Shown: positions 1 through 51,777 of the stretch, in pieces
Position numbering within the stretch: position 1 is the first letter of the stretch
How the letters are laid out: each line of letters starts with the position of its first letter
NCBI GenBank assembly: GCA_030698625.1
Contig: JAUYMS010000042.1
Span: forward strand, 28,150 to 92,149
Direction of reading: 5' to 3'
Source: Candidatus Omnitrophota bacterium
GTDB lineage: Bacteria > Omnitrophota > Omnitrophia > Omnitrophales > Aquincolibacteriaceae
Length of the DNA stretch: 64,000 nt
Notes under the pieces: generated by a model
Databases searched by the model: none
What the model saw: only the letters and a program-made list of their open reading frames with translations
What the model was told of the DNA's origin: nothing
Position numbers and translations under genes: made by a program

Positions 1-3000
1 AGATGGACGGAATCTCAGCGCCGGTTCCCTGGATCAGGGCATCAAAGGCTTTCTTGTCCGTGGACAATCGCATGATACCGGACGTATTCATGACCGGTAT
101 TCCCCGTGACTCCAGCTCCGCCAAGACAGATGCTGGCGCCAGGCCTCCGGTTGCGACGGCATCAATGGGAAGAGGCCTTCTGAAGTGACCGAGCACCAAC
201 CGCCCGTCCTTATCCACAAAAACGGCATAGGATGCGTAAACAGCGTCTGAGTTATCACGCCCGCGGTAAAGGCCGCGAACGGGCGGTATGATGACAAAGT
301 TGGCCTTATCCGTTTTATCCTTTGCCGCCCAGTAAGTGGCGAGTTCAAAGCCCGGAAACCCATTCGGGAACATTGCAACATTGGGCCCCTCAGGATTCGG
401 GAGATCCTCCCAATCGACCTCCTCGACCGCCATGGCCGCATTGTGGCTCGGCAACCCGCCCTCAAAAAGATCTCCGTAGCCCGTTTCTCTAAATTTTGCA
501 ATATCAGAAGCGGCCGTCGCCTGTAATAAGATGGCGGGATCGATCCCCAACTGATTAAACAACTTGTCCTCCAACTCGGCGTAAACTTCTTCTTCGGAGA
601 CGCGCAGCTCGGATCGTCTCGTCGACTGGATGGCTTCCCACAATGCGGTTAGTGCCCCGCCTTCGGCTTCCAACCTGTAATAAATTTCCGGATCGGTGAC
701 ACGATAGACACCGCTTCCAAGCGCCCCGTGTTCATGACGATGCGCCAGCCTCTTATCTAGCCAGTCCGGCCTCAGATCGAGGGCGTTGATCAACTGGAGC
801 CCGGGTGCATTAAAAACAAACGGACTTTGAGGATGTTTGTCGGTGAGATTCCCCAGGTCACGGACAGGTTCAGTTATGTAATAGGTGCCTGGCCGCGCCA
901 GGACTGAAAGCGTATTTCTCAATGCTAAGTACGAATCGATCAATCGTTCCCATATCGGTTCGTCGTTTAGGTCCGCTGCAGATGTGCGGTCCTTATTCTC
1001 ATAGGTGACATTCCGCTTGTAGACGGCATCGGCGCTCCTACCCTCGAGACCGAGCCGCTTCAGCACACCGTCAACACCGTCATAAGCCGATTGAAGCTCA
1101 TCAACATTGAACACATTGGCGTGGAGCACCTCTAGGTGAAGCTGTCCGGGTTGAAGGTCGCCGGGTTCGATCCCCATCAGCTTGATTCCCTTCCCCTGCT
1201 CAAGAGACTTTGTGAACGCGCCGAAGTACATCGGCGTCTGCCTGAAAACAATATGTTCATCGCCGTCGAAGGCGATGAGATGGATATCCCATGCCTTCAA
1301 TTGTTCCCTGACCTGATCCTCGCCATACCGATCTGCGAGTTCTGCCTTGAGCTCGGTGAAAAACATTTTGACTATGTCCCACGCTTCCACGGGATTCCCG
1401 CCGACACCGACTTCGGCCAGAATGACCGTTGTGTCACCAGCATCAAGTTTTTCACGGGCAAGTTGCCGCATAGCAGAGTGAATCAGCTCCGCCTGTAGAA
1501 CGTCTTCATCATTTTCCACAAATCCGATCGTCTGAATAAAACCCGTGGGAGACTCCAAGACATCTCGAGCAAGAGCCGTCAGGTAAGCATCGGTATTGGC
1601 AATACCAATCGTCTCACTCATCTCAGAGCCAATCCCTTCAAAGGTGCCACGCAAATTCGTAATCTGTTCATCCGTGGCAACGGGCACGCCCTCAAGGGCA
1701 GCTAAAGTCTGCCCGAACCGCTTCACGCGGCGCCCGACATGCAGTTCAATGGCGGCATCACTGCGCAGTTCGGAGCGGTCGGCGTCTTTAGCAATCTCGC
1801 GGGCTTTCTCCTCGACCATCGCCTCTAATTCGCCGACAAGGTTGTACTCGAGATAAGCGTTCATCACCGAAGTTCCGGCCTCATCGGCCACCCTTGAGAG
1901 GCGATCGGTTTCTTCGCTGCCCAAGATATTTCTCATGCTGCTATGAAATCGATGCTCACCCTTTGCGATATCCCCAAAGTAGTCTACGTGCTTATTTTCC
2001 AGTTGGGGGTATTCAAGCCGAATGGCATCCAACGCCTCCCGGCGTGCATAAAGGGCCAGGCGCCGCAGGCGCTCGTATTCCACAGTGCCCACAGCGGACA
2101 GGATGTATCCGTTCCCTTCAGGAACAATGTGCTTGCCCACATCGCGAATGACATGCCAGATGGGCATTCCCTTTCTATTTGTACCCGGCTGAAAAACTCC
2201 GTAAAGGAAGCTGTCAAGAAAGAAAGAGACGTGCTCGCTAGTCTCGGCCCACGCGGGGCGCTCTTCATGGATTTTATTAGGGATTGAGCCCGAAAAAATT
2301 GCTGCCGAAACGATTCTTTCCGAGTCCGTTTGAAATTCCGATTGGAGCCGCTGCCGCGTGCGGAACATTTCTGCTCCTGACAAGGCGACATCGTCGAGGA
2401 GCACGACATTCTTGCCCGTGCGTGCAAGTGCCCGAATACCGTCTTCGTCTTCCGGCCTTTCCAAATACAAGAACTCCGGGACATCTTCCGGATGAAATCT
2501 CTGCCACATCAACCGCAGTAAGCGTGCGGCCCAGGGGCCGCTTCCCGGAATGACAATAATCCGGTGCAAGTCTCTCTCGTCTTCGCGGATGCGGTTCATG
2601 AGATTATAGGCAGCGTCTTTCAGGGAGCGCCGCTCGCCGAGAGAGTCATTAATGATATCCCGCATATGAGAGGCCTTTTCCAACGGGTGCTTAATAACAG
2701 CGAGTTTAACCTGGCGGCCGAAGGCTTCAGCTTCGTGAAATTTTGCGATGCGATTACCCGGTTTCAGTACTGTTGCGGTACCCGCTCCGGCGGCAAGCCG
2801 CGCGGCTTCAAATAGGTTCATGCCCCGGCGTTCGGCGTAAATAAAAGCGACCTTGACTGCATCACCTGCGCCGACATCGGAAACGGTCGTGACCGGAGGA
2901 TGCTTGGCGTGATACGTGATTATCTCCTTTTCATTGAACGGGCTGCGACTCGTTGCCAAAATGCCGTCGGCCCCCAAGCTGATAACCACTTTGTTGATAC

Positions 3001-6000
3001 CGCTCCGGATTAGATCCTTCGCATACTCGGCGATCCTGACATAATCGCCTTCGAGCTCACTCACCGGCACACCCAAGTAATCCGCAAGCTCCCTGAGATT
3101 AATACCCAGAAAATGGGGGCGAGCTTCAATGCCGTGCCGGAGGGCCTCCCCCCGCGTGTCGAGATAGGTTAGGATGCCCAGTTTCTTGGCCTCGCGAATC
3201 TTGTCGGCGTAGAACGTTGCCGGTAATCCCGGCGGGAGACTGCCGGAGAAGACCACGTAATCGCCCTCCCTCAGGTGCATGAAGATAGAATCGCTAAGAC
3301 TCTCCTGCTCGGCATCCGTCATATCGGGGCCGCGCGGAGTGACATTCAACTGGTTCCGGTTGCCGGCATGCACATTCATGGCAATGCGCGAATCGCCTTC
3401 GATCGGAGTCATGAGCGCCGTGCCGATATTGTCTTCCAGTTCGGCCTTACCGATCTGAATCGTTCCGGCCGCGCCTCCGAAAGTGCCGGTCGTAATCGGC
3501 GAGATGTCAAAGGCGATAAGGCCTCGCGAAGCGTTAAAACCCTTGCCTCCCGCATACATATTATAAGAATCCGGTACAATGATGCCGTCGGTGCCGTTGG
3601 CCCCGTCTGGGGGAAACTTTTCGAAATCAAAAGATACGTCGAGAATGCCGTTGGCCATCACCGTGACAACGCGCGGCAATCCATCAACGGGGTCAATGCG
3701 CCCTAATGCACGATGATCTCTCGTCGGCTCATACTGCTCAGCATGCTCCTCAGGCGTCTGCCCCACGAACAATTCGAATGTGACGCGGCTCAGATGCTCA
3801 AGCTCGGCAGAACTCAAGCGCTCCGCAGCTTCGTGATAAAGCAGCGGCATTTCCGTAACACGGCCGCTCGTAATGACACCGTTAATGACTGCGCGCATTC
3901 TCCCAACAGGCGCATCGCTTGCCAGCGCATCCCTGAACTGCTGAATCTCGGGACTTTCATCTTGATAAAGATCTGCGCGGCCCGTGATCAGCGCGGCAAC
4001 CCGCCCGATCCCGGCCTTTTCAAAGTCGGTAATCACGTAGTGCGCACCTGCATCTTGCAATTGTTTACGAGAATGCAAGCCGGTTGCGAGCGCAACGGGA
4101 ACGATGCCGGCTTCAAGCGAGGCCGCCTGGCCGCTCAGCGAATCATCCACATAAACAACCTGTTCCGCGGACAAACCCCCTCGGATCTCGCGCAGAAGAT
4201 CCCCTTTCGATCGATTTTTCTCCTTGGCACTTTGAACCTCATCGATGTATTGATCGATACCGAACAAACGGGCCTGACGCATGACCGTGGGTGTGAGGTT
4301 GCTGGTAACCACGATGATCGCGATCTCCGAAGTAGCCTCCTCGGATCTGATGAAATCCAGCAGGGCAATCGACCCCGGAGTCATCCGGTTGTCGCGGGTC
4401 CGGTCTGTCGGCGCAACATAGAGCCTCGCTCGGGCGCTCTCCAAGAGCTGCCCGGCCTTTTCAGTGAGCGTCTCCCCGGGCAGGGCTGCCAGGAATTCCG
4501 AATTCCCGAGTGTTCTTTCCGCCATTTCCAGTAATATTTCTGTATGCTTATCATCCGTGCGGTCGCCGTGCCACAACTCCTGCACGATCTGAATATGCAG
4601 AGCTTCGGCCGCCCCATCCAATGTCCCGTTCGATAGAACAGGCGCCAAGATTTCGGCCAAACGATTCTCGAACCATGAGATCGAATTGTCCCAATCGAGC
4701 ACAAGCGCTTTGACATCACGCGGGGCCACGGCATCGGGCTTCGCCCATAGGGCATCGCCGGTTCTAAGTTCGGAGCGGGCATTCACGATTTCAACGTTTC
4801 CGAAGTAAAGAAGTGCGTCATACCGGAGGTCGGCAGAGGCTCTTGCCGCCTCTTTGACAAATTCTTGCTCGGCATCTAAGAAGCGCGAGCCCCCGAGATA
4901 GCTTATGAAAATTCCGTTTGCTGGCGCGAGCGACAGAATCTCCGCATCCTCGGCATTTCTCAGATTGGCATAAACGGGTTTGATCCAGCTCCTGAGAACC
5001 TCATCCGCCGCATACCGAAGATCCAAGGGTATGCCCGATTCCAATTTGGGTAATAACTCGCTTCGAAAAGAAAACGGGGCCGTTGAACCCGGCGAGGAAT
5101 CCCGATGCCAAGTTTCACCGATTTTCCCATTTTGGATGATGCGAGGGTCATCATAGGTGACCGCATCATCAAAACCCTGGGGATCATCGTAGGAGAAATC
5201 AAAACGTCCGTTCTCGGCAAGGGCAAGGTTCACAATCTCCCTGTCGGCGGCTTCAATCTTCACATCCCAGCTTTTCAACCAGCTTTCGAATCCTTCAAGG
5301 CGTTCCTTATTAGCATCATGAAATTCCTTAAGCGCGTAGTAGATATCCATCGCCAGAGAATAGGGTTCTTCCCCGCTTGAAATACCCACATTTTTAAAGC
5401 GAAGCGTATAATCCTGCCTCGCCTCTTTCCGAACGATAAGTTTGCGAACATATTCCTGAATAGCTGCGTCCTTGTAACGGAAAAATTGGGTGCTCTCCCG
5501 CGAGTAATTCGGGATGGCAGCTAATGCCGAAAAAATCTCCGCCCCTAACCGGAACAATTCATCTTTGTTGCTCTGCAAACCAAATGAAAGGTAATCTCTA
5601 AAACTTTGCCGGTCCTTTAACTTCACGCGGGCATTCATCAAGGACTCAAAATAGTGCCACATCCGGTCTTTGATGGCTTCCGCCCCGATAGCTTGGTAGA
5701 TGCGGTCAATACTCGTTACCGTTTCGCTGTCCAGTTGTCCAAAGACGGCGGCGACAAACCCCTGTTTCAAATCAGCGTCTGCTGCCGCGCCCGTGGTCAA
5801 CGCATTGACAGACTCGAGAATTCTGTTTTCATCCAATGCACGCAGTTCCGAACGGTCGGGCTGAATTAACAGAAGGGCTTGATTGCGCTTATCAAAAAGC
5901 ACCACGGGCGATTCTTTGGACCGCCAAACATTTTGGAAAATCGCCACGGGCAATTGATCCGGATCTTTGACACGCAGCACCAGAAGGACTTCCCGGTTCT

Positions 6001-9000
6001 GTTCGTCAAGTCCGTCGAAAATGGGATATCGTTTTTTCTCATGAGTCAGAAATCCCTTGTCGATAAGCCCCCGGATTTTATGACCCGCAATGACGGGTTC
6101 ATTGACGGCTGTGCGTAAAAGATTGCTGACATCGCGAAAAGCCGAAAGGTTGCCGCCGTGGGCGGATTCCCACATGGTTTTAGGATCCATTCTTTCCGTA
6201 GTTCTGAGCACAAGATCCCCCGTTACCGGAGCCCGAATACCGGCAAGGACGTGCTGGGCCGGTATTTTTGTAGTCCGGCGGAGGTTCAGCTTGTAGGCAA
6301 TCGCATTATCGGCACTCAAAACGAGCGGGCTTTTTTTGCTTTGCCGCGTATCCTGCACGGCATGGATGAAGCTTCGTTCAAGACTAAGATCGAACCAACC
6401 CCCGAGTCCCGAAACGACCGAATTTCTGATCACTCCCCGGGAACGGGGGTCCAGATTCGCGTTCAAAACAACGGCATTTTCCAAACGGAGGTTCCCATCA
6501 AAGAGCGTCCCGGTTTCCGGTTCGGGTACATCCCAGAACTGCCGCGCCAGGCGCCCCTCGGCAGAATCCTCAAGTAAGACAAGCATATTATGCCGAAAGA
6601 CTCCTTCCGAAAGATCCTCTTCCGTCGCGACATTGCCGAAATCCCACCAAAGGGCATGACTTCCCACGTCAATGACCCGCATGAGCGGCTGAGCGGAATC
6701 ACGATGCTGTTTCCAAAAGAGATTGATCATTTTATTACTGACCTCATCCGCGGCAATTCCCTGCCGCCTTATAAATTGCCGGAAGGTTCTTAAAGAAGAA
6801 AAGCCGGCGGCATTCCGCTCTTTTTGCTTGAGAAGGAAATCAAGTCTCGTAAGCGGCACCCACCAATCCTGATCGGTATTTGCAGAATTCTGATCTTGTT
6901 TTTTGGGATCCGTTTCATTCAGTTCCCGCTTATAACTCTCCATGAGTCCGTCCCAAAATTCCAGACTTGCCGTAAATGACCCGAGACTCTTGCCGATAGC
7001 GTCGACCTCGCTGTGCCTGGCAACAAACTCCCTGCCGCTTTCGGCGCTCTTCGGCTTCTCCATGATTCGCGTGGCATGCCATGCATCCCCTTCTTTTCCT
7101 AACGCGATCAATCCGTATTTATCGACCAATTCTTCAATATCGAAGTCCCCGACCAGCGAAAGGATTTCCAGCGGCAATTCGGCGGCTTGACTTAGTGTCT
7201 CGTGCGAGACTGTGGGGACAAAGACCTGATCTCCCCAAAAAACAAGGAGCCTTCCGCCGCGATTGCGTGCGAATATGGAGGTTTGGAAGATAACGGATTC
7301 TAAAAGGGTTAGCGGCATCGTCTCATCACCCGATATCACATGCCGCGGCATTGCAATCTTGCTCTTGGAACCGCCTTCGGCGCCGGTAATCGGCCAGATC
7401 CGGCTGCCGAATCCCGCCGTATGGTACATCGCGATAACCGGCTCTCGTTTTCGTGTCCGGCGAATAGACTCTAAAAGCTGTTCCCAGGTTTTCCCGGTTT
7501 GCGCCTCACTTATTTGCTGCGCACTTTGATAAGCGACCAGGGAACCCAGTCCGTTCCCTGCCGGTTTCGAAACTCCATAGCTTTCCACAACCGAAAAGAC
7601 TTCTGTGTTTTCGCCAATCACTTTACCTTTAGTGCTTTGCAGTCTTTCCTCCCAAAACCGTTGTTCGGCGGCATTCGAAGAAACAACGATCACGATGTCC
7701 GGGCCTTCGGATTTCGCAATGCTGTCATACATGGCTTGAATATTGTTTGACGCAATCGCCTCCTCGGCGGCGCTGATGCCGCCGTCAGTGCGCAGTTCGG
7801 AGCGCGAAAAATCCATGATTCGAAGATCTTCATCATTGACATAAATTGTGGCATCGAACATTTCCGCTAAAGTCGTTGCTCCACTCAATTCATAATACGG
7901 CAAACGGCCTATCGCATTGTCTTCCTCATCTAAGTCCGCCACCGCAAAATCACGATGTCGCAGGGGATCGTCCCAGCCCAAGGCGCGATGGATATAACTC
8001 TCTCTAAGGCCCAAACCATATGACGACGAAGATTCGTAACCAAATGCATAGTAATTTGCCTCGCCTAACCATCTCGTTAAGTATTCTCCTACCCCCGGAA
8101 GCAAGGACCAGAGGTCTAGCATCAGAATGCCAACAATCATCGCAATCCCATCTCTTTTCGGGTGCTTCTTTACCACGTGCAGCTCGCCCAAGTAGACAAG
8201 GACCCTGTTATTTGCATTTTGATCAAGCAGCCGTTTGATCCTTTTTGCGGTGTAGTAATCGCGCAGGGTCCTCCGCACGAAGCCGCCCTTACTTTTCTCA
8301 TCGATCGGCTCAATCGAAATCCCTTTTTCATAAACAGCCTTGAGCATCTCCAGAAAGGAACCCAGGTCGAATAACCGGGAATCGAGCGTCAATACTACCC
8401 CCAATTCATCCAATGCGGTCTTGTCAGGGTAATTATTTCCATCCTTGGACTGAAATTTCGCAGGAATGATGTTTCGGAGCTCCTCGATGATATCGTAATT
8501 CCCGGCCAGATAATCTCTAACATCTTGGATCCCCGATGCCGCCCATTTTTGCAGCAGCAGATCGAATGCCGGTTTCATCGCAGGAGCTGCCTCAATAGCG
8601 AAATGAGTGAAGGGGCTGGCCTTGATAAGATTGCCGATGAGTTCCCGGTATAGGAATAGGGTCTTCGCACGGTGCATGTCACCAAAGGCAATAACTCTTG
8701 TGCCGGATTCCACCGCAGACTGAAAGACATCCGAAACCGGCCGGCCGTATTTCCTGGCCGAGGCAGCAATCTCCTCTTTAGGCGGCACAACGGCAGTGCG
8801 CAGCTCGGAGCGTGACTTCATGCCGGAGTGTAAAGAACGCGCGAGTTTTCGGACGCCGCTGCGTTTGTCGGGACTGCGTGCAATCTCCCCAAGGAAGGCG
8901 TGTGCCTTGTCGCGGAAGGGATGATCTTCGGGAATTTCGGCAAGGAGCCGCAGCTTCGTCTTATTATTGAACCAAGTGCGGTGCTCCCGGATCGTTTCCA

Positions 9001-12000: not shown

Positions 12001-15000
12001 AGCGCAGAAACGGCGCCCTCTGCTCGCCGTCCTCACGCGGCATCCGCCATTCGACATACTCCTCCCGCAGTGCGGAACGCACCTGCTTCGGCGTGCCGCG
12101 AAGGGTTGCCTTCCTGATGAATTCCAGTTCGTAAGAAAGCGGTAGTCCGTTTTTGTCGCGGTATTCAGGGTCGCGAACCCGGATCGAAAGGCCGTCGTCA
12201 GTCACTTCGAGTGTCGGCGCCATCGACTTCGTGCCCTCGAAGAGTTCCTGGAACTCAAATACTTTCGGAGTGCCGTCGGCCTCACCGAGCCGAGACCATT
12301 CGGTCTTGAGATTTCCCGACGGATCAACGTTGATCGCGTAGGTGTCCTGCCTGTCGCGGATCGCGATCTGTCCGATACGCGGCAGGAGTTCTTCGGGGGT
12401 CACTTGAACCCAATTGTCACGGTACACTTCCACTTCGAGGGTGCGCCCTTCGGCTTCAAGGACCCGGGCCATGGCGCTCAGCATATTGGGGTTTACCGTC
12501 CAATTGATTCTCAACTGATTGCGATTCAGATCCAGCGCCCGCTGGCCCGCCCATGTCAGGATGGCTGTCGCAATCCCTTCGCCCTGGTATTTAGGCTTTA
12601 GGTACATGTTGAAGACTTCCACGGCATCACTCCCGTCAAGTTCACCTTGCAGTTCCAGGAGGATGACGCCGTAGCTATCGCCCGCGCGGGGCTCATCCAC
12701 CCGTTTGCCGTGATACCAAACTTCATAGAAACCCCGTGAGGCTCCCGGTGGACGGATAAGATGTGCCGGGCCATGAGCAGTCTCCATCGTCACCCAAACA
12801 ACTTCATTGCTTCCGTTTCGCCGTTCCGTAATGCTTCCGTCCGCATAAGTATCCGTAACAGCGACATCGGTTTCGATTGAAGCGACGCGCGCCCCGAATT
12901 CCTCACTGTCGTTTTCTGCCAACCGGAGAGTGTAAAAGCCGAAAGAAGTTCCGGCTTCGTCCAAGGCACCGTAGTCGGTATGGTCCTTCGCCGCAAACCC
13001 TTCCCTCTCGAAGATACGGATGGTCACTTCATAAAGTTTTTTTGCACCGTCCTTCTCCATAAAACTTTCGTTCCATACGATCACACGCGCATGAGGGACA
13101 TTCGAAAGCAGACGCGGCGAAGCCGCGGCAAGACGCCTGATCGCAACACCGCCGATATCGGGGTCGGCGAGATTGGAGTAGCTATAGAACTTAGACGGCC
13201 GTTTCGCACGCAGCATCAGCCGCGGCAGATTCCACTCCACGAGATCAAAGCGCATACCGGGGAAGGCAAGCTCGCCGTCTGCTGTCACAACATTGTCATG
13301 TACCTTAGCTTCAGCTTCGATGCCGAGCATGCGCGACAGCACGCGCGTATTGGCGACTTCAAGAGGGTTGACGCCCAGGAAATGAAACCGCTTCTGCCCC
13401 GTAGCCAGCCAGATGAGCCAGGCATTAATTCCCGTTCCGGGACCGACGATCAGGGTTTCGAGATCCCGCAGGGTCTCTGCGGGCACATCCTTATAGAGAG
13501 CCAGCGCCTGCTGATAAAGTTGTCTATAGTACTTCGGGTCAGCAACCGTGTACCCTCCCGGCGCGTAGACGAGCGGGAAAACAGGGATGACAATCTTGTG
13601 AAACTCTTCATCAATGCCGGTCAGTTCGTCGAGAAACTCCGGTATTTCACGCGGAGTAAACAGCTGGTCCGTGCGGACAAGGTATCCGTCCCGCGAGGCC
13701 TTTGCGATGCTGAATTGATTGCTGTTCTGTTTGGGAAGCAGTTCCGCGGCGCGCTCGGCTTTTGTTTCGCGCAAGTAATTCTGCAATATGGTTTGATCAA
13801 CATCCCATTGGTGCTTGAATGCCAGCCACTTCTCGCGAGCGCCTGAGGCGCCCGGCAACGGCACATCGAAATGAACCGCGCTCAGGTCAAAGTAATCACC
13901 GCCGCCTGTTGCCGGAAAGATACCGATCACGCGGCCTTCGCGAACGACAATATCGAATTCAGCGGCATCACTCAGTTCGGCACGAAGAATGGAATGCCCT
14001 TTCGGCAGCCCGGTTTCGGCAAAGACTTCCGTTTCTTCCGGTACCTTGAGTGTCAGGATTTCGGCCTCGACCCCGTCGACGTCTACTGTGCGGCGGCCGG
14101 TAATGCGGTCCCCCAGCGCCTCGAGCTCGCCGAGTTCCAGCGCCCCCAGAACCTCCATTGCGGAATAGGTCAATTCCGCAGCACGCAGCTCCGAGCGGCC
14201 GGCCTGTGCCTGCGCGTCTTCTTTCCTCTCTCTGTTTTCGCGGCCCTGCTCGATCATCACGTCAATCCAGGCCTCAACCGAGCGGCCAATACGAGCCTCG
14301 GCCGTAACATCGCCGGACCAAGCGCGTGCACGCAGAAAATAATCGAGATCCCACACGCCTCCCGAATCCTGGCCGTTCACTTCAATGACATGGGGATGAA
14401 AGATGCCGTCTTCGCGCGTCACAATAATGTCGACGCCCATAAAATCCGTCGCGTGCCAGCCCTCACGAAGTAAATTGTCCTCGCGCATCGCCTGTTCGAT
14501 AACCGGATAGGCCTTTAAGGCCTGTGCCTCGGCTGCGGCGCGGATTTGCGCGGCCTCGCCGGCCGTGATCCCGAGCAGATCCGCCAACGCTTCCAGCGTT
14601 ATGGCTTCGGCCCCCAAGCTGATATTCACGGGGCCGCCTTCACGGTCCAGGCGCACCACGATATCGGTGATCACGGGATTTCCGTTCGGGTCGCGCGTGA
14701 CAAAGACACGGAGATTCCAGTCTTTGACGGTGCCGTCCTGCCGGACCAGCGGGGGCGTCTTTCTTTCCTGCAGGACAATGCCCTCGTTTGCCAACAGCAG
14801 GGCCAGACCGTGCCCGCTTATGAGGTCAAGATTCTCCGCGTTGAAAAACCGCACATCCTCTCCGGCCCGGCCGCCGGCCGGCTTGAGGACCGCCTCAGGA
14901 TGTTTGAGCAGGAATTCGGACAGGAGAAGTTTGACCCATTCGAACAGATCGTCATCCGTACGTTCCAGAAAATGCACGGTCGCTTCGGGCCCTTCGGAGG

Positions 15001-18000
15001 CACTTAGACGGCGCCGGGCCACGGCAGGGATGGAGCGATCGCCTAGAAAAACCGAAACCGTGTCCGGAACGGACACCCCCGCTTCACGCAGAAGCAGAGC
15101 CGCAATATCCTTGTCCTCATAGTGACGGAAGAGGCCGTCTTCCCCGGTTCGAACGTCCAACGAACGGATCGTGTCATCCTCATCCTGAGAAAAATCAGCC
15201 ACATGGTCAAGCGCCACGGGTTCCTCGAAGGCGACGATTGTGGGCCGTCCGTTCTGAAACGTAAAAGCATAATCACGGGCCAGCGGATAATTCGCCGCAC
15301 CGACCGGCTCGACCCCAACCGTGCCGGGCGCCACAAGCATATAAAAATTCGCATCCGGGCGCAGCACAGCCCGTTCCAGGAGAGCCAGGTGGTCCTCGGA
15401 TAAAGCGCCGTAAAGTCCGACGTTAATTTTGTCCGCTGACGCCGGCCCGGCATCGCGGTGTTGAATCAGAAACCCCATGGCCGACAGCGCCCCGGAGGCT
15501 GCACCGCGAACCTTTTCCGATTCATGGGCAAGCAGGGCGGCGGCCAATTGGGACTGAGTGCGGCGCGTATCCTGGTCCACACGTCCGAGCACTTTGGCCG
15601 CTGCGGCCGCGATATCGTCGTTCTCGTCTTCAAGGGCGGCACGAAGCGCCGGAATCGCTCTCTGCCGCAGATTTTCGAGATCCTGTAAATTTTCATGCGC
15701 GTCGCGAAGAAGCGCATAGGCCCCAAGGATATCTTTTTCGTCGCTGTTGAGATTGTTCTCGCCCGCGACGGCACGATAGGCCTCGGCCGCGCTCGCGCGG
15801 ACACGGGCAAATTCGTCATCCTTGATGAGCGCCACGAGTTCAGGCAGGGCGTCACGGCCTGCGGTGCCGAGCGCGGTGAGTGCGTCCGCCGCGATCACCC
15901 GCCGCGAAGGCGTCTCTTCCCGCAGCATCACGATCAATGCGGGAAGCGCGGCCCGGCCAAGGGACACAAGACTTTCCATCTCGCTCGCCAAGGCGTAACG
16001 AAATCCGAGCGCAATACTCCGGTAACCCTCACCAAATTCCCGATCCAAATCTCCGGCAGAAAGCAGAACATCGGCGGCGGCTCCGCGCACCGCGAGGGCC
16101 TCGTCTCCCCGCATGACGGTGTTGAGATAACTGCGCAGGCCCGGTACGGAAGCGCTGATATTGCCCAGGACTTGCACAGCTCGCAGCCGAACGCGGTGGT
16201 CTTTGCTGCGAAGCAGGCGTTTGAGACCCGGGGCCGCGGCCTCGCCGTAAGTCGGCAGCACCTCAGCCGCCTGTTCCTGAACGCGCGCGTCATTAGATCT
16301 AAGCGCCCCCGTCCACATTTCCATTTCGTCAGCACGCAGCTCCGAGCGCCCGGCCGGCACGACAAGGGCTTCGGCCTGGCGGATATATTCGAGCACGGCC
16401 GTGATGTCGTCGTCTGAGCGATCGCCGGCTTCCGTGTTGCCCTCGGGGTAACGAGTGACGAGCTGCATATCCCGCACCCTCTCCGTAACTCTGAGATAGG
16501 CGGCTTCGTTGATTTCTATTTGATCAAAATGCTTCAAATCACGAATCGTCTGCGCCAGCTCAGTAGGCCCGTAAGTCGGATCGAGAATAGCTCCACGAAG
16601 CTCCTGCAGGATCGTGGCGAGATCGGAGAACTCGTAAATGCCGGCCTGAACCGTAAAAGCAACCATCGCGTTGTCCAGCTTGGCCTTGTCGTCCGCAGTG
16701 ACCGACAGCGGCAGTTCCGCCTTCGATTCGATGACAAAAACCAGCTGCGAGTCAGCGGCAAGACGAACCACGGCTTCGGGAACAGTGCTCTCATCGTCGA
16801 TCGCGTCTCTCGCACCTTCGAGCGCTTCACCCACAATACGGATAATCTCTTCGTCATCAAGCCCGGCGATCTCTGTCAACTTCCGGTACGCCAGGCTCAA
16901 CGCCCGATCAAACTCGAAAAGGGCTTGTGGGTGTTCCAGCTCGGCGCGAAGCCAGGGGTGATTCTGCGAGAGAGCAAACGCGGTCCGCATATGTGCCGGC
17001 TCATCCGCCCGCAGTTCCGAGCGGAGTCTAGTAATCTCTTCCTTGAGTACCCGCATGAATACGGCAGACCCGGGCGCGCCCAATTCAAGGACGGCCGCAA
17101 ATTGATCCGCTTGCAGATCCATCTCCATATACTGCAATTCATCGTCGAGGACACGAACCAGTTCGAGCGAACCCTGGGGCCCGTAAATCTCTTGGCCGCT
17201 GCGTACTATAGCGCGCGCGGCTTCGGCAGGATCAAAGGGCTGACCGGATCGCGTCAACTCTTCAAATGCCAGCGCAATGAATCCGCGTTCGATCTCTCCC
17301 CGGGAATAGCCGCCGGAGTCAATGACGTAGGGGTCTCCGGTTTCGTCCTCGCGCATAATGTTTGAAAAATTCTTGAGCGCTTCGCGCAGACCGGGAAAGT
17401 CTCTCTTTACTTTTAGGAGGGCCGCCACGGCCTCTTCCCAACGCCCCCGTCGGAGCAGTGAGAAAAGGGTGTGGCCGTGAATCACTTGTGAAGACATCAC
17501 TCCGTAAGTTGTTTCCCTGCCCGGCAGATCTGCCCGCACAAAAACCCCAGCGCGGGGAGCCTTTCCCTGGCGTCCCAAATCGAAGGCAACCTCTGCCTGG
17601 TCGTCGATAAAGGCACCCGCATAGACACCCAGTTCATACAGGGTGCCGTCGACATCGACGGAGAGCGTAATAAAATCGCGCATGCTGCCCGCAGTCTGTT
17701 TAACAATTACGACTTTAACATCCTGCACTGACTGCGCCACCGGGATCTGAAGCTCGGGATAAACTGCCTGCAATGATTCCAAAATGAATTTTCGGCTGCT
17801 CAAAGCCTTTGCCAAGTGACTGACCATCCGCTCGCGGTACTGCTCGGGATGCCTGAATCGGAAGCCCTGCATTCCCGTCACCGTTACCCTGCCCTTGTCC
17901 AGTTGAGCCGCGCCCAATTCCCGCACGGCTCTAAGTTCCGAGCGCACGCGGCCGCCTAGGACAAGCTTTGTTCCGTTGAAGTTGGCAACGGGTTTTACGA

Positions 18001-20074
18001 TCTGAATGGTCTTTGTGGTAACCGGAATGGCCAGCCTGCCGCCGATGGCTTCCAGTAACGGTCCGCGCATATCGTAAAACTGCCCGTCAGCATGCATCTC
18101 AACCTCAAGTCCTGTTTTCGACGAGCGCGCCGCCATCTCAATCAAATATTGAATCGAATCCGTCAGGGAGAGCTCCACCTGCTCGGCAAGCACGCGTGTG
18201 ATTGCCTGTGACTTCCTGACCTCCTGATAGATCCCCACGAGCGCCTTCAGATGCAGAAGCCTGAGCTCCTGCGCCTCTGCCTCGCCTAGGCCCCCAAGTC
18301 TCGCTTCAAACTGCGCATGATCGAGCAACGCGGCTTCAGCCACGCTCATATTGAGCGATGCCGCTAACCTGGATGTGAGCGCGGTAATAAAACGCCCGTC
18401 TCCGGCTGCGGCACGCATATACAAAGCACTTTTGATTTTGGAGTTTTGCAGAGAGGGTGTTTCGATGGGGGTCATGAGCGCATTCACATAGTTTTCGCCC
18501 TCCTGCTCCTGCACTGCTGAAATCCTGGGCGACACCCGCGCATAGGCGATCCCCGCTTCACGAAATTGGCGCGCAAGCCCTTCGGCATGAAAACCGCCGG
18601 TGATCATGACGGCCTTCACTTCGCCGGCTTGCCGCATGGCATCGAGCGCTCGATTCATCATGATTTCATCGCGCTTAAAGGTGCCTTCGTAGAAACGTAT
18701 TGCCAGATCAAAGGCCGCGTCCAATTCTTTGAGGCTCGTAATAGCGAAACGCGTCTTCGAGTTTTTAAGTTTGTCAAGACGGCCCGCATAGGCCGAAGGA
18801 CGCAGGCGCAAAGCATTGGTTTTTACGCGCCGGAATTCGTCCGCCGTCAGTTCCAGCGTGAACAAATTACGGAGAAGGAGATAATCCTGATAATGCTCGG
18901 CCAAGACTTTTTCTGACTCTTCCTTCGCGAGTTTCTCGAGCACCAACTGCGTCAAATGTTTCGTTTCACTGAACAGATCGTAGACATCCATTTCATGCCG
19001 CAAGGTGAAAGTCGCCAAGGCATCGGCGAACTGGGGATACTCCCTGAAGCGAAATCCCGAGGTTCCCATGGCCTGATAGAATCGTTCCAGGAACAGTCTG
19101 GGATTTTCAGATGCTTCATGGGCCCAGCTCAATTCCCCCGTGACCGATACCTCAAACTTCTCAAAGGCCGGCGCAAATTCCGCGCCCGCCTTATGCGAGC
19201 GAAGCCGTATGAGAAATTTTTCCTTTTCCTCTCTCGTCGCCGTGACATCGGCACTTCCCTCAAGCTCCCGCAACTTGAAGAAGCGGATCAGATGCGGCCA
19301 CTCACGCTGATTGCTGACATCCCGGAAATCAATATCGAGGTGCCTTTCCGCGGCCTTCCCCAGGGCATTCAAGTGCCGCAGCAACTCTGAGCGAGAATCC
19401 TGATACAACATCCACTCTTTGAGAAAGGCTCTGAGCTCGGGGTTGAAATAATGGGAACCCAGCACGTCCATCGCCCCCTTCACCTGCGCCAGAAATGCCT
19501 CGTTCGTGTCTTTCTTTTCCAGGACGCGCCGGTAGTTCAGAAGGTTCTCATAATAGACACGTTCGTCTTCAACACCGTGGGCCGTTGCCGCACCGCCGGC
19601 CTTCATCAAATAGAGTTCGGCGCCGCCAACCTCGGCCTGCGCGGCCAGGCGGTCTGCGATCTTGTAATTTAATCGGTCGTCGGCGAAGAAACGCATCGAA
19701 TCCCGATCGAGCGGGCCGCTTGCACCTTCCAGGAAAAGAAGGTTCATCTCGTGGTTCTTAGAAAGATAGCTGAGGATCTCCTGGATATTCTTTTGGGCCT
19801 CGTAACTGGAATGCGCATCCTGAATATGCACGATGGTCGGGAAGTCGACAGCACGGAGGCTTTTTTCTGGAAGATAAGTTTCTTCAATGTGGCCCAAAGA
19901 TTCCGGAATACTGAGCTGCTCGACGAAGGCAAGGTTCTGCACTTCCTTTAATGCAGGCGCGGGCGTCGGACTCACCTCGACCATAAACGGAGCCGGCGCA
20001 GACCACGCCACCGTGGTTAGGGCAAAATTAGCCGCCACAATGAGCGCTATCGTTTTTAGAAACCTGCTTCGCAT
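1..20074 (-). CDS. giant multidomain protein A (signal peptide plus enzyme-domain mosaic); N-terminus at 20074, C-terminus beyond window start; at least 6691 codons in window
   Basis: Minus-strand ATG at 20072-20074 preceded by GAAAGGAAG RBS; hand translation gives MRSRFLKTIALIVAANFALTTVAWSAP..., a signal peptide paralogous to the gene B N-terminus. The frame (codon high ends = 1 mod 3) was verified in-frame by explicit codon-by-codon translation at 12 RSELR sites and several domain motifs between nt 602 and 20074. None of the listed minus-strand ORFs in 1-20 kb uses this frame (all end at 0 or 2 mod 3), so it never closes and was dropped from the track only because no stop lies inside the window. 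In-frame motif matches: PRTase-like GKNVVLLDDVALSGAEM (about 2380-2410); PfkB signatures GGKGFNASRGL (3518-3550) and DVGAGDAVKVAF (2846-2880); HAD motifs ALVLDWDNSI (4679-4708) and VVYVDDS (4139-4160); GNAT motif YQGEGIATAIL (about 12550-12590); HEAT-like GRAALPALIVMLREETPSRR (15900-15958); N-domain ITGGFHAEGL (18575-18598). Confidence 0.8.
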   Translation of the reverse strand, partial: MRSRFLKTIALIVAANFALTTVAWSAPAPFMVEVSPTPAPALKEVQNLAFVEQLSIPESLGHIEETYLPEKSLRAVDFPTIVHIQDAHSSYEAQKNIQEILSYLSKNHEMNLLFLEGASGPLDRDSMRFFADDRLNYKIADRLAAQAEVGGAELYLMKAGGAATAHGVEDERVYYENLLNYRRVLEKKDTNEAFLAQVKGAMDVLGSHYFNPELRAFLKEWMLYQDSRSELLRHLNALGKAAERHLDIDFRDVSNQREWPHLIRFFKLRELEGSADVTATREEKEKFLIRLRSHKAGAEFAPAFEKFEVSVTGELSWAHEASENPRLFLERFYQAMGTSGFRFREYPQFADALATFTLRHEMDVYDLFSETKHLTQLVLEKLAKEESEKVLAEHYQDYLLLRNLFTLELTADEFRRVKTNALRLRPSAYAGRLDKLKNSKTRFAITSLKELDAAFDLAIRFYEGTFKRDEIMMNRALDAMRQAGEVKAVMITGGFHAEGLARQFREAGIAYARVSPRISAVQEQEGENYVNALMTPIETPSLQNSKIKSALYMRAAAGDGRFITALTSRLAASLNMSVAEAALLDHAQFEARLGGLGEAEAQELRLLHLKALVGIYQEVRKSQAITRVLAEQVELSLTDSIQYLIEMAARSSKTGLEVEMHADGQFYDMRGPLLEAIGGRLAIPVTTKTIQIVKPVANFNGTKLVLGGRVRSELRAVRELGAAQLDKGRVTVTGMQGFRFRHPEQYRERMVSHLAKALSSRKFILESLQAVYPELQIPVAQSVQDVKVVIVKQTAGSMRDFITLSVDVDGTLYELGVYAGAFIDDQAEVAFDLGRQGKAPRAGVFVRADLPGRETTYGVMSSQVIHGHTLFSLLRRGRWEEAVAALLKVKRDFPGLREALKNFSNIMREDETGDPYVIDSGGYSRGEIERGFIALAFEELTRSGQPFDPAEAARAIVRSGQEIYGPQGSLELVRVLDDELQYMEMDLQADQFAAVLELGAPGSAVFMRVLKEEITRLRSELRADEPAHMRTAFALSQNHPWLRAELEHPQALFEFDRALSLAYRKLTEIAGLDDEEIIRIVGEALEGARDAIDDESTVPEAVVRLAADSQLVFVIESKAELPLSVTADDKAKLDNAMVAFTVQAGIYEFSDLATILQELRGAILDPTYGPTELAQTIRDLKHFDQIEINEAAYLRVTERVRDMQLVTRYPEGNTEAGDRSDDDITAVLEYIRQAEALVVPAGRSELRADEMEMWTGALRSNDARVQEQAAEVLPTYGEAAAPGLKRLLRSKDHRVRLRAVQVLGNISASVPGLRSYLNTVMRGDEALAVRGAAADVLLSAGDLDREFGEGYRSIALGFRYALASEMESLVSLGRAALPALIVMLREETPSRRVIAADALTALGTAGRDALPELVALIKDDEFARVRASAAEAYRAVAGENNLNSDEKDILGAYALLRDAHENLQDLENLRQRAIPALRAALEDENDDIAAAAAKVLGRVDQDTRRTQSQLAAALLAHESEKVRGAASGALSAMGFLIQHRDAGPASADKINVGLYGALSEDHLALLERAVLRPDANFYMLVAPGTVGVEPVGAANYPLARDYAFTFQNGRPTIVAFEEPVALDHVADFSQDEDDTIRSLDVRTGEDGLFRHYEDKDIAALLLREAGVSVPDTVSVFLGDRSIPAVARRRLSASEGPEATVHFLERTDDDLFEWVKLLLSEFLLKHPEAVLKPAGGRAGEDVRFFNAENLDLISGHGLALLLANEGIVLQERKTPPLVRQDGTVKDWNLRVFVTRDPNGNPVITDIVVRLDREGGPVNISLGAEAITLEALADLLGITAGEAAQIRAAAEAQALKAYPVIEQAMREDNLLREGWHATDFMGVDIIVTREDGIFHPHVIEVNGQDSGGVWDLDYFLRARAWSGDVTAEARIGRSVEAWIDVMIEQGRENRERKEDAQAQAGRSELRAAELTYSAMEVLGALELGELEALGDRITGRRTVDVDGVEAEILTLKVPEETEVFAETGLPKGHSILRAELSDAAEFDIVVREGRVIGIFPATGGGDYFDLSAVHFDVPLPGASGAREKWLAFKHQWDVDQTILQNYLRETKAERAAELLPKQNSNQFSIAKASRDGYLVRTDQLFTPREIPEFLDELTGIDEEFHKIVIPVFPLVYAPGGYTVADPKYYRQLYQQALALYKDVPAETLRDLETLIVGPGTGINAWLIWLATGQKRFHFLGVNPLEVANTRVLSRMLGIEAEAKVHDNVVTADGELAFPGMRFDLVEWNLPRLMLRAKRPSKFYSYSNLADPDIGGVAIRRLAAASPRLLSNVPHARVIVWNESFMEKDGAKKLYEVTIRIFEREGFAAKDHTDYGALDEAGTSFGFYTLRLAENDSEEFGARVASIETDVAVTDTYADGSITERRNGSNEVVWVTMETAHGPAHLIRPPGASRGFYEVWYHGKRVDEPRAGDSYGVILLELQGELDGSDAVEVFNMYLKPKYQGEGIATAILTWAGQRALDLNRNQLRINWTVNPNMLSAMARVLEAEGRTLEVEVYRDNWVQVTPEELLPRIGQIAIRDRQDTYAINVDPSGNLKTEWSRLGEADGTPKVFEFQELFEGTKSMAPTLEVTDDGLSIRVRDPEYRDKNGLPLSYELEFIRKATLRGTPKQVRSALREEYVEWRMPREDGEQRAPFLRYLRESLESYDGAPLTFELWGGLASNVLLQLADVSGMWFTVNDLDIFFYLDDEGELRDVSNDDIANLVRRVGDDLGVQVDGTPVFEDQEGFKRKRRETRTGDLQLNETLIRYDRKTDEFVINMPARAREALDRGEITFTDSSDITEADTLRDKIVVNIGSAVRLNRVAGLNLAQSARTELKTNIARFMAMPAGAGRVTEQALYTDSVLNATKRIAAITPGSTSKALDLALGHDVLELARTSLKLKPRGHKYRNALLSQAQQTAQKYLGVETERTRQLVARYSQPDSLPAGLRPKSRLPEGSLKPAADSDFVILDIPLAVAEARSPIIREMREFLESYESSPSNWDTENGTLAMEFWGGTAINVLLQLAGLTGLWYTIHDLDISVYAQKGGRPQNISMLEHGRVAAKIARDFGLKVDAASAWRSRDSLRDWLQDDSNGYLAINRMTLYLNRQTGTLQIEIPKDVLTALEEGELTVRQMSKRVDVDEVEERIIKNIGSMVRLRQVTGLKPSEEAIEMLRAMILEWNKPGRNKSEKLGLYDRMAVDSARRMAPLFGGRAGEALKAVLSDEALDMARQLLHVRKKGGNHFSRILPLAEEGVQEYMGEDTGEAANVLDRFSLPGPSRELIPNGAAANVDYGQNVGQLRRWVRSELRSEPIEEHKVVNSLAEFNRVVRAWQRQKDGINKVRLFTPEKSQVSDLDFVQGRTEEPMAWIHSISPRVGIDYESAFPYLLTLTQRPLVTDEVDTIENLLTVEFNYEGPETFFDEMPFEASWEPYAVLPDSRHPQHVNYVQDKILVVSVKDMDLLTEGWLKSYLPRSIRSPKIYVLVDRLDQNLKRRIGLAKLIDGVMVMHSTQDDADKWGRNTRGGKGIPIISLVAKGKQPKIKPGDFYNFDWDSKTLWRINPARSELRPEDVFFILAAGLPIAAVLLHILLRRIGGAITNLWMGLLEWRINVYPTGVHRWKLGQILQAARDYNYDYSGIGATSQLEHPVFERIEAAFDRYLETIREHRTWFNNKTKLRLLAEIPEDHPFRDKAHAFLGEIARSPDKRSGVRKLARSLHSGMKSRSELRTAVVPPKEEIAASARKYGRPVSDVFQSAVESGTRVIAFGDMHRAKTLFLYRELIGNLIKASPFTHFAIEAAPAMKPAFDLLLQKWAASGIQDVRDYLAGNYDIIEELRNIIPAKFQSKDGNNYPDKTALDELGVVLTLDSRLFDLGSFLEMLKAVYEKGISIEPIDEKSKGGFVRRTLRDYYTAKRIKRLLDQNANNRVLVYLGELHVVKKHPKRDGIAMIVGILMLDLWSLLPGVGEYLTRWLGEANYYAFGYESSSSYGLGLRESYIHRALGWDDPLRHRDFAVADLDEEDNAIGRLPYYELSGATTLAEMFDATIYVNDEDLRIMDFSRSELRTDGGISAAEEAIASNNIQAMYDSIAKSEGPDIVIVVSSNAAEQRFWEERLQSTKGKVIGENTEVFSVVESYGVSKPAGNGLGSLVAYQSAQQISEAQTGKTWEQLLESIRRTRKREPVIAMYHTAGFGSRIWPITGAEGGSKSKIAMPRHVISGDETMPLTLLESVIFQTSIFARNRGGRLLVFWGDQVFVPTVSHETLSQAAELPLEILSLVGDFDIEELVDKYGLIALGKEGDAWHATRIMEKPKSAESGREFVARHSEVDAIGKSLGSFTASLEFWDGLMESYKRELNETDPKKQDQNSANTDQDWWVPLTRLDFLLKQKERNAAGFSSLRTFRQFIRRQGIAADEVSNKMINLFWKQHRDSAQPLMRVIDVGSHALWWDFGNVATEEDLSEGVFRHNMLVLLEDSAEGRLARQFWDVPEPETGTLFDGNLRLENAVVLNANLDPRSRGVIRNSVVSGLGGWFDLSLERSFIHAVQDTRQSKKSPLVLSADNAIAYKLNLRRTTKIPAQHVLAGIRAPVTGDLVLRTTERMDPKTMWESAHGGNLSAFRDVSNLLRTAVNEPVIAGHKIRGLIDKGFLTHEKKRYPIFDGLDEQNREVLLVLRVKDPDQLPVAIFQNVWRSKESPVVLFDKRNQALLLIQPDRSELRALDENRILESVNALTTGAAADADLKQGFVAAVFGQLDSETVTSIDRIYQAIGAEAIKDRMWHYFESLMNARVKLKDRQSFRDYLSFGLQSNKDELFRLGAEIFSALAAIPNYSRESTQFFRYKDAAIQEYVRKLIVRKEARQDYTLRFKNVGISSGEEPYSLAMDIYYALKEFHDANKERLEGFESWLKSWDVKIEAADREIVNLALAENGRFDFSYDDPQGFDDAVTYDDPRIIQNGKIGETWHRDSSPGSTAPFSFRSELLPKLESGIPLDLRYAADEVLRSWIKPVYANLRNAEDAEILSLAPANGIFISYLGGSRFLDAEQEFVKEAARASADLRYDALLYFGNVEIVNARSELRTGDALWAKPDAVAPRDVKALVLDWDNSISWFENRLAEILAPVLSNGTLDGAAEALHIQIVQELWHGDRTDDKHTEILLEMAERTLGNSEFLAALPGETLTEKAGQLLESARARLYVAPTDRTRDNRMTPGSIALLDFIRSEEATSEIAIIVVTSNLTPTVMRQARLFGIDQYIDEVQSAKEKNRSKGDLLREIRGGLSAEQVVYVDDSLSGQAASLEAGIVPVALATGLHSRKQLQDAGAHYVITDFEKAGIGRVAALITGRADLYQDESPEIQQFRDALASDAPVGRMRAVINGVITSGRVTEMPLLYHEAAERLSSAELEHLSRVTFELFVGQTPEEHAEQYEPTRDHRALGRIDPVDGLPRVVTVMANGILDVSFDFEKFPPDGANGTDGIIVPDSYNMYAGGKGFNASRGLIAFDISPITTGTFGGAAGTIQIGKAELEDNIGTALMTPIEGDSRIAMNVHAGNRNQLNVTPRGPDMTDAEQESLSDSIFMHLREGDYVVFSGSLPPGLPATFYADKIREAKKLGILTYLDTRGEALRHGIEARPHFLGINLRELADYLGVPVSELEGDYVRIAEYAKDLIRSGINKVVISLGADGILATSRSPFNEKEIITYHAKHPPVTTVSDVGAGDAVKVAFIYAERRGMNLFEAARLAAGAGTATVLKPGNRIAKFHEAEAFGRQVKLAVIKHPLEKASHMRDIINDSLGERRSLKDAAYNLMNRIREDERDLHRIIVIPGSGPWAARLLRLMWQRFHPEDVPEFLYLERPEDEDGIRALARTGKNVVLLDDVALSGAEMFRTRQRLQSEFQTDSERIVSAAIFSGSIPNKIHEERPAWAETSEHVSFFLDSFLYGVFQPGTNRKGMPIWHVIRDVGKHIVPEGNGYILSAVGTVEYERLRRLALYARREALDAIRLEYPQLENKHVDYFGDIAKGEHRFHSSMRNILGSEETDRLSRVADEAGTSVMNAYLEYNLVGELEAMVEEKAREIAKDADRSELRSDAAIELHVGRRVKRFGQTLAALEGVPVATDEQITNLRGTFEGIGSEMSETIGIANTDAYLTALARDVLESPTGFIQTIGFVENDEDVLQAELIHSAMRQLAREKLDAGDTTVILAEVGVGGNPVEAWDIVKMFFTELKAELADRYGEDQVREQLKAWDIHLIAFDGDEHIVFRQTPMYFGAFTKSLEQGKGIKLMGIEPGDLQPGQLHLEVLHANVFNVDELQSAYDGVDGVLKRLGLEGRSADAVYKRNVTYENKDRTSAADLNDEPIWERLIDSYLALRNTLSVLARPGTYYITEPVRDLGNLTDKHPQSPFVFNAPGLQLINALDLRPDWLDKRLAHRHEHGALGSGVYRVTDPEIYYRLEAEGGALTALWEAIQSTRRSELRVSEEEVYAELEDKLFNQLGIDPAILLQATAASDIAKFRETGYGDLFEGGLPSHNAAMAVEEVDWEDLPNPEGPNVAMFPNGFPGFELATYWAAKDKTDKANFVIIPPVRGLYRGRDNSDAVYASYAVFVDKDGRLVLGHFRRPLPIDAVATGGLAPASVLAELESRGIPVMNTSGIMRLSTDKKAFDALIQGTGAEIPSI
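9213..9272 (-). other. internal hydrophobic TM-like segment of giant protein A (VFFILAAGLPIAAVLLHILL), immediately C-terminal to an RSELR linker
   Basis: Explicit in-frame translation of 9181-9300 gives NPARSELRPEDVFFILAAGLPIAAVLLHILLRRIGGAITNL: a 20-residue apolar stretch followed by RR. Confidence 0.5.
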
Positions 20075-20375
20075 TCGCTTCCTTTCTTTTCCCTTTTCAT
20101 AATGAGATAGAATCTCCACGTAGGGCGGACGACGCACATAGAGTTGTCTATGCACGCTCCTCCCGTGGGGAGCTATATCACGCTATAACACGCTATTTTT
20201 CTACCTCGTAAAGATTACCTGATGAGGGTGGGAGCTTCAAAGGCAGGAGTGAATTATTTTTAGGGATGACGCTAACCTAAGCCTTTGTTATAGCTAGACT
20301 TAGATCAAGCGCCTCAGGCAGTCGCCAACTATTTAATGGGGATAAAACGGAGGGTGGGAAATTTGAGAAAATGGC

Positions 20376-34659: not shown

Positions 34660-34682
34660 TATAATGAGGGATGTCGAGCTTA

Positions 34683-51504: not shown

Positions 51505-51777
51505 CTAGAGGAGCGTAAAAGCGAGCATCCCCATGAGGATCATGAGGATAATAAGGATAAGCCTTCCGTCCTTGATCCATTTCGCAAGCTTTCCGATCGG
51601 CCCGGAATCATCAAAAACCCGTTCGCCGCAATAGAGGCAGGAAAAGCTATTTTCCTTAATCGGCTGGCCGCAATGACGGCATGAAATATCGGCAAGAGGC
51701 CGGGATTCTTCGGCTTCCCATTTCTTGCGAAGGCTCTCGGGTTCTTCTTCCTCTTCTTCGTTAGGCATAAATCTCAA
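51505..51777 (-). CDS. small zinc-ribbon protein with acidic N-terminus and C-terminal TM helix, translationally coupled to giant gene C
   Basis: CRHCG...CLYCG zinc ribbon; C-terminal LILIILMILMGMLAFTLL. ATG overlaps the gene C stop by 17 nt. Confidence 0.5.
   Translation of the reverse strand: MRFMPNEEEEEEPESLRKKWEAEESRPLADISCRHCGQPIKENSFSCLYCGERVFDDSGPIGKLAKWIKDGRLILIILMILMGMLAFTLL

Follow-up and report, generated by a model that had tools for sequence, protein, structure and literature searches.

The first 20 kb of the 64,000-nucleotide stretch of DNA analyzed here (the window; positions 28,150 to 92,149 of contig JAUYMS010000042.1 in assembly GCA_030698625.1 of a Candidatus Omnitrophota bacterium) are occupied by one very long gene on the minus strand, here called gene A (1..20074). 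Its 5′ end is complete and its 3′ end is cut by the window edge, leaving at least 6,691 codons in view (nt 2..20074 in frame). We consider it likely that gene A is a genuine chromosomal gene of an uncultured member of the Omnitrophota, encoding an exported mosaic protein, free of repeats and no shorter than 6,691 amino acids (aa), that serves as a scaffolded array of enzymes at the cell surface or the interface with a host.

Translation of the reverse complement from the ATG at 20074..20072 to nt 2 gave 6,691 codons without a single stop, whereas the other two minus-strand frames of 1..20074 contain 209 and 342 stops. An earlier note on this DNA had claimed a minus-strand frame with zero stops over 1..20074, checked down to nt 602; the full translation bears this out down to nt 2. 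The start, ribosome-binding site and signal peptide that it placed at 20074 are also as reported: the ATG is preceded at a distance of 3 nt by the Shine-Dalgarno-like GAAAGGAAG (20078..20086, minus strand, read off the sequence) and followed by the N-terminus MRSRFLKTIALIVAANFALTTVAWSAP. Upstream, the frame is first closed by a stop at 20185..20183, and scans for promoters and terminators in the upstream region remained at background level. The note was right, too, that the C-terminus lies outside the window, the frame being still open at the left edge, and that gene A is missing from the list of open reading frames (ORFs) for want of a stop: the list requires a stop codon and omits frames running off the source, and the 3′ end of gene A lies beyond the left edge.

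At 54% GC, an open frame of this length is effectively impossible by chance. Codon usage in the gene A frame follows that of 18 ordinary neighboring genes (r = 0.88) and, since it does so in every 3-kb block (r = 0.76-0.86, with the off-frames at about 0), the DNA is coding throughout in one frame; the codon-position GC pattern is likewise constant along the gene. Gene A is confirmed as one continuous, real coding frame, a single uninterrupted gene. No tandem repeats, long DNA repeats or internal protein repeats were found in it. Four other identities were considered and rejected: a repetitive adhesin by the lack of repeats, a nonribosomal peptide synthetase or polyketide synthase by the lack of such domains, a pseudogene or frameshifted gene by the single clean frame, and an artifact of stop-codon reassignment by the complete absence of in-frame stops of any kind under the standard code.

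The question of which organism carries gene A could be addressed through the ribosomal protein gene rpsB. The RpsB protein encoded by this gene matches MDP3920987.1 (MAG: Candidatus Omnitrophota bacterium) at 100% identity, with the next-best matches at 60-70% and several of them named Omnitrophota or Omnitrophica, and this identity places the host genome in the Omnitrophota. Among GTDB representatives, RpsB matched only proteins of other phyla, at about 55% identity. The neighbors of gene A are ordinary chromosomal genes, among them rpsB-tsf-pyrH-frr and genes for SurE, holo-ACP synthase, an aldehyde dehydrogenase, an aminotransferase and an ABC transporter. Two contigs of the independent Logan assembly of run SRR13727534 match the window without a difference, over 14,872 bp in one and 16,618 bp in the other, and the match takes in the first 776 codons of gene A, contig SRR13727534_55225 ending at window position 17746. 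This short-read assembly thus breaks inside gene A, though the window has no repeat at that point.

The N-terminus of protein A (aa 1-27; 19994..20074, minus strand, as are all features of gene A given below) resembles a signal peptide, with three basic residues, a hydrophobic core and then A-W-S/A-P. The hydrophobic segment spans aa 5-23 by Kyte-Doolittle hydropathy, and an AlphaFold2 model has a helix at residues 2-24 and then a disordered linker at residues 22-47. The end of the signal peptide carries a motif, NT[VI]AWS[AL]P, that is common to genes A (19994-20074) and C (45250-45337; a paralog described below) and to P0001, P0002 and P0025, and more distant relatives keep a tryptophan near this position (GWSAT, LWALP, AWGQ); the motif could be a sorting or processing signal.

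There is not one cysteine in the 13,262 residues of the three large proteins of the window, A (6,691 aa), C (2,492 aa) and B (4,079 aa visible). In-frame TGT or TGC codons number zero in gene A, against 248 and 329 in its off-frames. The 22 ordinary ORFs of the same window encode 73 cysteines in 6,731 aa (1.08%), a frequency at which the absence of cysteine from the large proteins would have a probability of about 1e-63, and tryptophan, methionine and histidine are present at normal levels. Depletion extends to the family of proteins sharing the N-terminal “head” domain of protein A: mean cysteine content is 0.17% in the 36 homologs found first and 0.088% in 136 further representatives (366,898 aa), 40 of which, including a member of 7,376 aa, have none. 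Specific avoidance of cysteine is typical of proteins that act outside the cytoplasm or cross membranes unfolded. We therefore read the exclusion in the window and the depletion across the family as support for export, and count the basic-hydrophobic-AxS N-terminus together with the complete lack of cysteine in its favor. This feature of the large proteins is apparently unreported: the papers on giant proteins of Omnitrophota consulted here do not mention it, and a library search, as a limited check, found nothing relevant.

The head domain (aa ~50-540; 18455..19927) was the sole part of protein A shared with other proteins in a first homolog search, which returned 36 proteins of 963-2,616 aa at no more than 44% identity. 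Those with names belong to Omnitrophota/Omnitrophica and Auribacterota, and the enzyme domains downstream of the head differ in each of the 36. A profile built from an alignment of 20 sequences was then used to define the family (E <= 1e-3, against 1.84 billion cluster representatives) and matched 10,246 cluster representatives; among the best 150 of these 10,246 the domain sits at the very N-terminus, in proteins from 578 to 7,376 aa. Invariant residues in the 20-sequence alignment are H88, Q94, E116, G117, G167, E169, Y462, R468, G493, G494 and H496, while D86, the first acidic residue, is not invariant.

In the same AlphaFold2 model (mean predicted local distance difference test score, pLDDT, 83), the head has a parallel β-sheet core flanked by helices and is similar in structure to members of the TIKI/erythromycin esterase (Ere)/ChaN/TraB group. 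The head probably has a TIKI/Ere-type fold, on the strength of this model; we call it only probable because neither Foldseek against the PDB nor a profile search of PDB sequences gave a significant match, and no Pfam model detects the head at significance, weak hints of ChaN and DUF5694 being all that was returned. RRSP, PMT, HopBA1, Bcr135 and ChaN have been assigned to the TIKI superfamily, in which the catalytic His-Glu pair is H85/E113 in Bcr135 and H3902/E3930 in RRSP, the latter having in addition a conserved arginine (R4001) and a second histidine (H4030) (PMC6254334). The 28-residue spacing of H88 and E116 in the head equals that of both catalytic pairs, R468 and H496 are 28 residues apart as compared with 29 for R4001/H4030, and D86-x-H88 is comparable to E3900-x-H3902 of RRSP. 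The head differs from the TIKI/Ere/ChaN/TraB-PrgY superfamily in having a helical insertion of ~350 aa between the two halves of the core, and in that it invariably stands N-terminal in exported proteins of great length. With D-x-H...E...R...H kept, it is most likely an active hydrolase, either an esterase or a peptidase, if the motif is a guide; the idea that it helps to process or mature the long chain is a guess.

The remainder of the visible protein carries modules of diverse kinds. HEAT repeats occupy aa 1257-1533 (15476..16306; Pfam HEAT_2 9.7e-19, plus HEAT and HEAT_EZ) and are followed by an ATP-grasp module of the YheC/D type (aa 1788-1904; 14363..14713) that scores just above the cut-off of its Pfam model (PF14398, E 1.1e-6, 28.5 bits against 26.8) and by a weak stretch resembling a GNAT acetyltransferase (aa 2470-2529; 12488..12667; Pfam Acetyltransf_7 3.4e-4), which at 21.4 bits misses its cut-off of 27. 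Two internal hydrophobic segments are candidate transmembrane (TM) helices: aa 3603-3621 (VFFILAAGLPIAAVLLHIL; 9212..9268) has charged flanks and a mean Kyte-Doolittle value of 2.55 over 19 residues, and aa 3977-3995 (8090..8146) is the weaker candidate, with a mean of 2.05. A nucleotidyltransferase-like stretch at aa 4262-4346 (7037..7291) is again weak (Pfam NTP_transferase, E 1.2e-3; its 18.9 bits fall short of the 21.2 required), a CheR-type stretch predicted to bind S-adenosylmethionine (SAM) at aa 4861-4920 (5315..5494) is borderline (PF01739 4.1e-6, 26.8 bits against a cut-off of 27), and a HAD-type hydrolase module at aa 5121-5325 (4100..4714) exceeds the cut-offs of both Hydrolase (29.3 bits) and HAD_2 (29.5 bits).

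Next along the chain comes a full-length kinase module of the PfkB family, with a hexose or hexose-phosphate as the expected substrate (aa 5469-5791; 2702..3670). It matches Pfam PF00294 at 4.9e-26 (92.2 bits, cut-off 25.8), positions 1-304 of the 305 in TIGR03168 at E 1.5e-53 and the fructose-1-phosphate kinase 2abq of the PDB at 3.5e-27, and stays below the NCBIfam cut-off for 1-PFK (181.7 against 216.4). Both PfkB signatures, GGKGFN and DVGAGD, are intact, and by these motifs the sugar-kinase module is apparently intact as well. The last 900 aa in the window (aa 5792-6691; 2..2701) are without a recognizable domain: Pfam has no match there, and a word-indexed, hence limited, search of 5.8 billion proteins gave no homolog at E <= 1e-5. 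An ATP-grasp domain starting at the window edge had been a candidate and was dropped when a separate Pfam search of the last 200 aa found none. Aa 4124-4558 resemble residues 1342-1779 of P0261, and phmmer with a 6,131-aa query in chunks of 600 aa found only two shared modules.

Taken together, these features suggest that its signal peptide would direct protein A into the Sec pathway for export and that the protein would remain extracytoplasmic, with the two hydrophobic segments as a possible tether. There, at the cell surface or at the interface with a host, it may form an array of sugar- and nucleotide-handling enzymes scaffolded by the HEAT repeats, with the head domain as a putative hydrolase in the exported chain. 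Such an array at the surface or host interface is what has been proposed for the “Archaeovorin” and “multi-enzyme” proteins of Omnitrophota (10.1101/2023.11.21.568195; 10.64898/2026.06.07.730766).

Several observations weigh against this proposal. The PfkB, ATP-grasp, GNAT and SAM-methyltransferase modules depend on a supply of ATP, acetyl-CoA or SAM, none of which is expected outside the cytoplasm, and this sets the enzyme content in tension with an exported topology; the published studies of long proteins in Omnitrophota note the same problem of cofactor and location. About 80% of protein A is without annotation. The signal-peptide and TM calls come from hydropathy and inspection of motifs. 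No independent assembly covering 1..17745 of the window was found. Nor was any sequence to the left of the window found when genome and metagenome contigs were scanned with the last 500 aa, look-ups of the neighboring genes giving only the Logan contigs, and a homolog search with the last 900 aa gave no fragments from the same sample either.

The tension over cofactors would disappear if protein A were a membrane-anchored metabolon, its N-terminal helix an uncleaved anchor and most of the polypeptide in the cytoplasm with access to cofactors. The intact PfkB signatures and the presence of ATP-grasp, HAD and GNAT/CheR-like modules agree with such an arrangement, and published work, too, suspects that some “extracellular” calls for domains of this kind are wrong. 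We nevertheless regard it as unlikely: the basic residues lie before the hydrophobic core, which by the positive-inside rule predicts the N-terminus inside and the C-terminus outside, an A-x-S site follows, and a cytoplasmic location leaves the complete and specific exclusion of cysteine, here and in the family, unexplained, the neighboring cytoplasmic proteins having 1.08%. Cofactors would also be on hand if the protein were a secreted polyprotein or effector carrier in the manner of MARTX toxins that reached or entered a host or prey cell and was cut into separate enzymes there by its TIKI-type head or another protease; the modules are of cytoplasmic type and would find ATP and SAM in that cell. 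The signal peptide together with the exclusion of cysteine fits this reading, such a pairing being typical, by textbook knowledge, of substrates that traverse membranes in an unfolded state, the effector proteases RRSP and HopBA1 have the fold proposed for the head, and Omnitrophota are thought to be episymbionts or predators. In the visible 6,691 aa, however, neither a translocation module nor RTX repeats were found, nor was a C-terminal secretion signal or an autoprocessing cysteine protease, neither low-complexity linkers nor a cleavage-site pattern were seen in protein A, and the presence of two hydrophobic segments points to retention in the membrane of the producer, all of which makes delivery of this kind improbable.

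An origin of the 20-kb frame as a chimera of several genes or strains created in assembly draws on the break of the Logan contig at 17746, 776 codons into the gene, and on the failure to find a second assembly for 1..17745. Against it, 6,691 codons in one frame without a stop are rarely to be expected from a chance join, codon usage is uniform from one 3-kb block to the next, no repeats are present to attract a mis-join, many other assemblies contain proteins of the family, 5-7.4 kaa long, that bear this head, and cysteine is absent along the whole of gene A; we give this explanation hardly any weight. An exported enzyme array encoded by a genuine gene is thus the reading that we prefer.

Very long genes are well documented in this phylum. 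ORFs of more than 20 kb occur in most Omnitrophota genomes (PMC10066038), 94% of the complete genomes encode one or more proteins no shorter than 10,000 aa, and predicted proteins reach 85,804 and 147,155 aa (10.1101/2023.11.21.568195; 10.64898/2026.06.07.730766). The suggestion in the earlier note that gene A is extraordinary, and one of the largest bacterial genes, finds no support in the face of these lengths. Within its own family, too, its size is ordinary, since the lower bound of 6,691 aa falls within the 578-7,376 aa of the best 150 of 10,246 representatives. Gene A adds one example to the documented long proteins of Omnitrophota, and is big, not exceptional.

The closest comparison is with the multi-enzyme proteins of Nielsen and Lui (2026) and the Archaeovorin proteins of West-Roberts et al. 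(2023), which are from the same phylum. As in both of these classes, gene A tiles diverse enzyme families on one chain with none dominating, encodes a signal peptide and a few TM-like segments, and is mostly unannotated and poorly conserved; HEAT repeats, HAD, GNAT, methyltransferase and sugar-phosphate enzymes, of which the GNAT and methyltransferase matches are weak or borderline here, agree with the published proteins, glycosyltransferases of families GT5 and GT1 being found in paralog C. HEAT repeats are the commonest domain of the published multi-enzyme long proteins, 94% of such proteins carry a signal peptide or TM segments, and genes A and C agree well with the “multi-enzyme metabolic” class and the Pfam families frequent in it (HEAT, HAD, GNAT, methyltransferase, starch synthase/GT1). 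With respect to class 1 of Nielsen and Lui (2026), gene A has repeated HEAT together with ATP-grasp, GNAT, NTP_transferase, CheR, HAD and PfkB once each, and hydropathy segments at aa 5-23, 3603-3621 and 3977-3995. The fit to Archaeovorin, a class with divergent SecA DEAD or preprotein-binding domains, is less clear: HEAT is clear, HAD present and methyltransferase borderline, glycosyltransferase and NUDIX domains are lacking from gene A (GT5/GT1 being in C), and the visible part has no match to the SecA family at E <= 0.05 and two internal hydrophobic segments rather than numerous TM helices.

There are further differences. The thresholds of the two catalogs were 10,000 aa (2026) and 30,000 aa (2023), whereas gene A is visible for 6,691 aa only; a search of its visible part turned up none of the SecA-DEAD, C39, S8, NUDIX and dockerin domains; TM density is lower, at 2-3 per 6.7 kaa as against about one per 450-900 aa; and neither the TIKI-like head nor the exclusion of cysteine is mentioned in Nielsen and Lui (2026) or West-Roberts et al. 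(2023). The likeness to MARTX toxins is a functional analogy only, in that these are also very long secreted proteins stringing together unrelated enzyme modules, RRSP being one with the TIKI fold. Secretion of MARTX toxins is of type I, and they have glycine-rich repeats and a cysteine protease domain; protein A has a Sec signal peptide and no cysteine, and no RTX-type repeat, type I signal or Pfam match to a cysteine protease was seen in its visible part.

Two other large genes are found in the window, both on the minus strand. Paralog C (37859..45337) encodes 2,492 aa and has a signal peptide and head as in A, then starch-synthase-like GT5 and GT1 domains by Pfam; residues 2-516 of A and 7-547 of C are 27.5% identical over 559 aa (blastp, E 2e-42). 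The earlier note had taken the N-terminus of A to be paralogous to giant gene B, and the existence of a paralog stands, but it is gene C and not the 4,067-aa ORF at 51761..63964, which shows no similarity. Gene B (51761..64000) has its stop in the window and its 5′ end beyond the right edge, with at least 4,079 codons here, so the ORF listed at 4,067 aa is itself cut, the frame being open to nt 64000; in Logan contig SRR13727534_12411 its product has 5,478 residues and still runs off the contig end. It carries alpha/beta-hydrolase and RmlD-like domains and no cysteine. A module of ~600 aa is common to genes B (2854-3452 of the listed ORF) and C (681-1313) at 35% identity (E 1e-96), which indicates that the large genes of this locus are mosaics of shared modules. 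As a practical warning, ORF lists that need a stop inside the window hide the largest genes, and here there are two such genes, one at each end.

Some of the smaller genes deserve mention. Directly upstream of gene A, a small gene (20561-20914, minus strand) encodes a cysteine-free protein of 117 aa with a signal peptide, which shows similarity to TIGR04073, a family associated with the exosortase system (E 2.7e-11), at 43.4 bits and thus short of the cut-off of 50. At 26396-26926 (minus strand), an ORF of 176 aa joins a bactofilin domain to an HTH_17 DNA-binding domain at its C-terminus, an unusual fusion. A cluster at 33430-37425, flanked by gene C and the housekeeping genes, looks like the remnant of a mobile element, comprising a PIF1-like helicase (33430-34659), a DUF6036/DUF2204 nucleotidyltransferase (34683-35438) and also an ORF (36523-37425, plus strand) with a recombinase zinc-ribbon domain alone.

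The exclusion of cysteine throughout the family and the TIKI-like head argue for an extracytoplasmic location despite the cytoplasmic type of the enzymes, and the conservation of such a putative hydrolase head on thousands of long exported proteins bears on where these proteins act. The cysteine-free composition, the head with the large family that carries it at the N-terminus, and the second giant gene at the right end of the window all deserve systematic follow-up, resting as they do on sequence statistics and one structural model. A more far-reaching idea, to which we assign a low probability, is that the head family, with more than 10,000 clusters, is a distinct and as yet undescribed class of Sec-exported, cysteine-free “polyproteins,” in which the N-terminal TIKI-type hydrolase would mature or release a series of ATP- and SAM-dependent enzymes of cytoplasmic type that act outside the producer, on or in a host cell. 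If this is true, Omnitrophota would export pieces of metabolism, and not adhesins or lytic enzymes alone.

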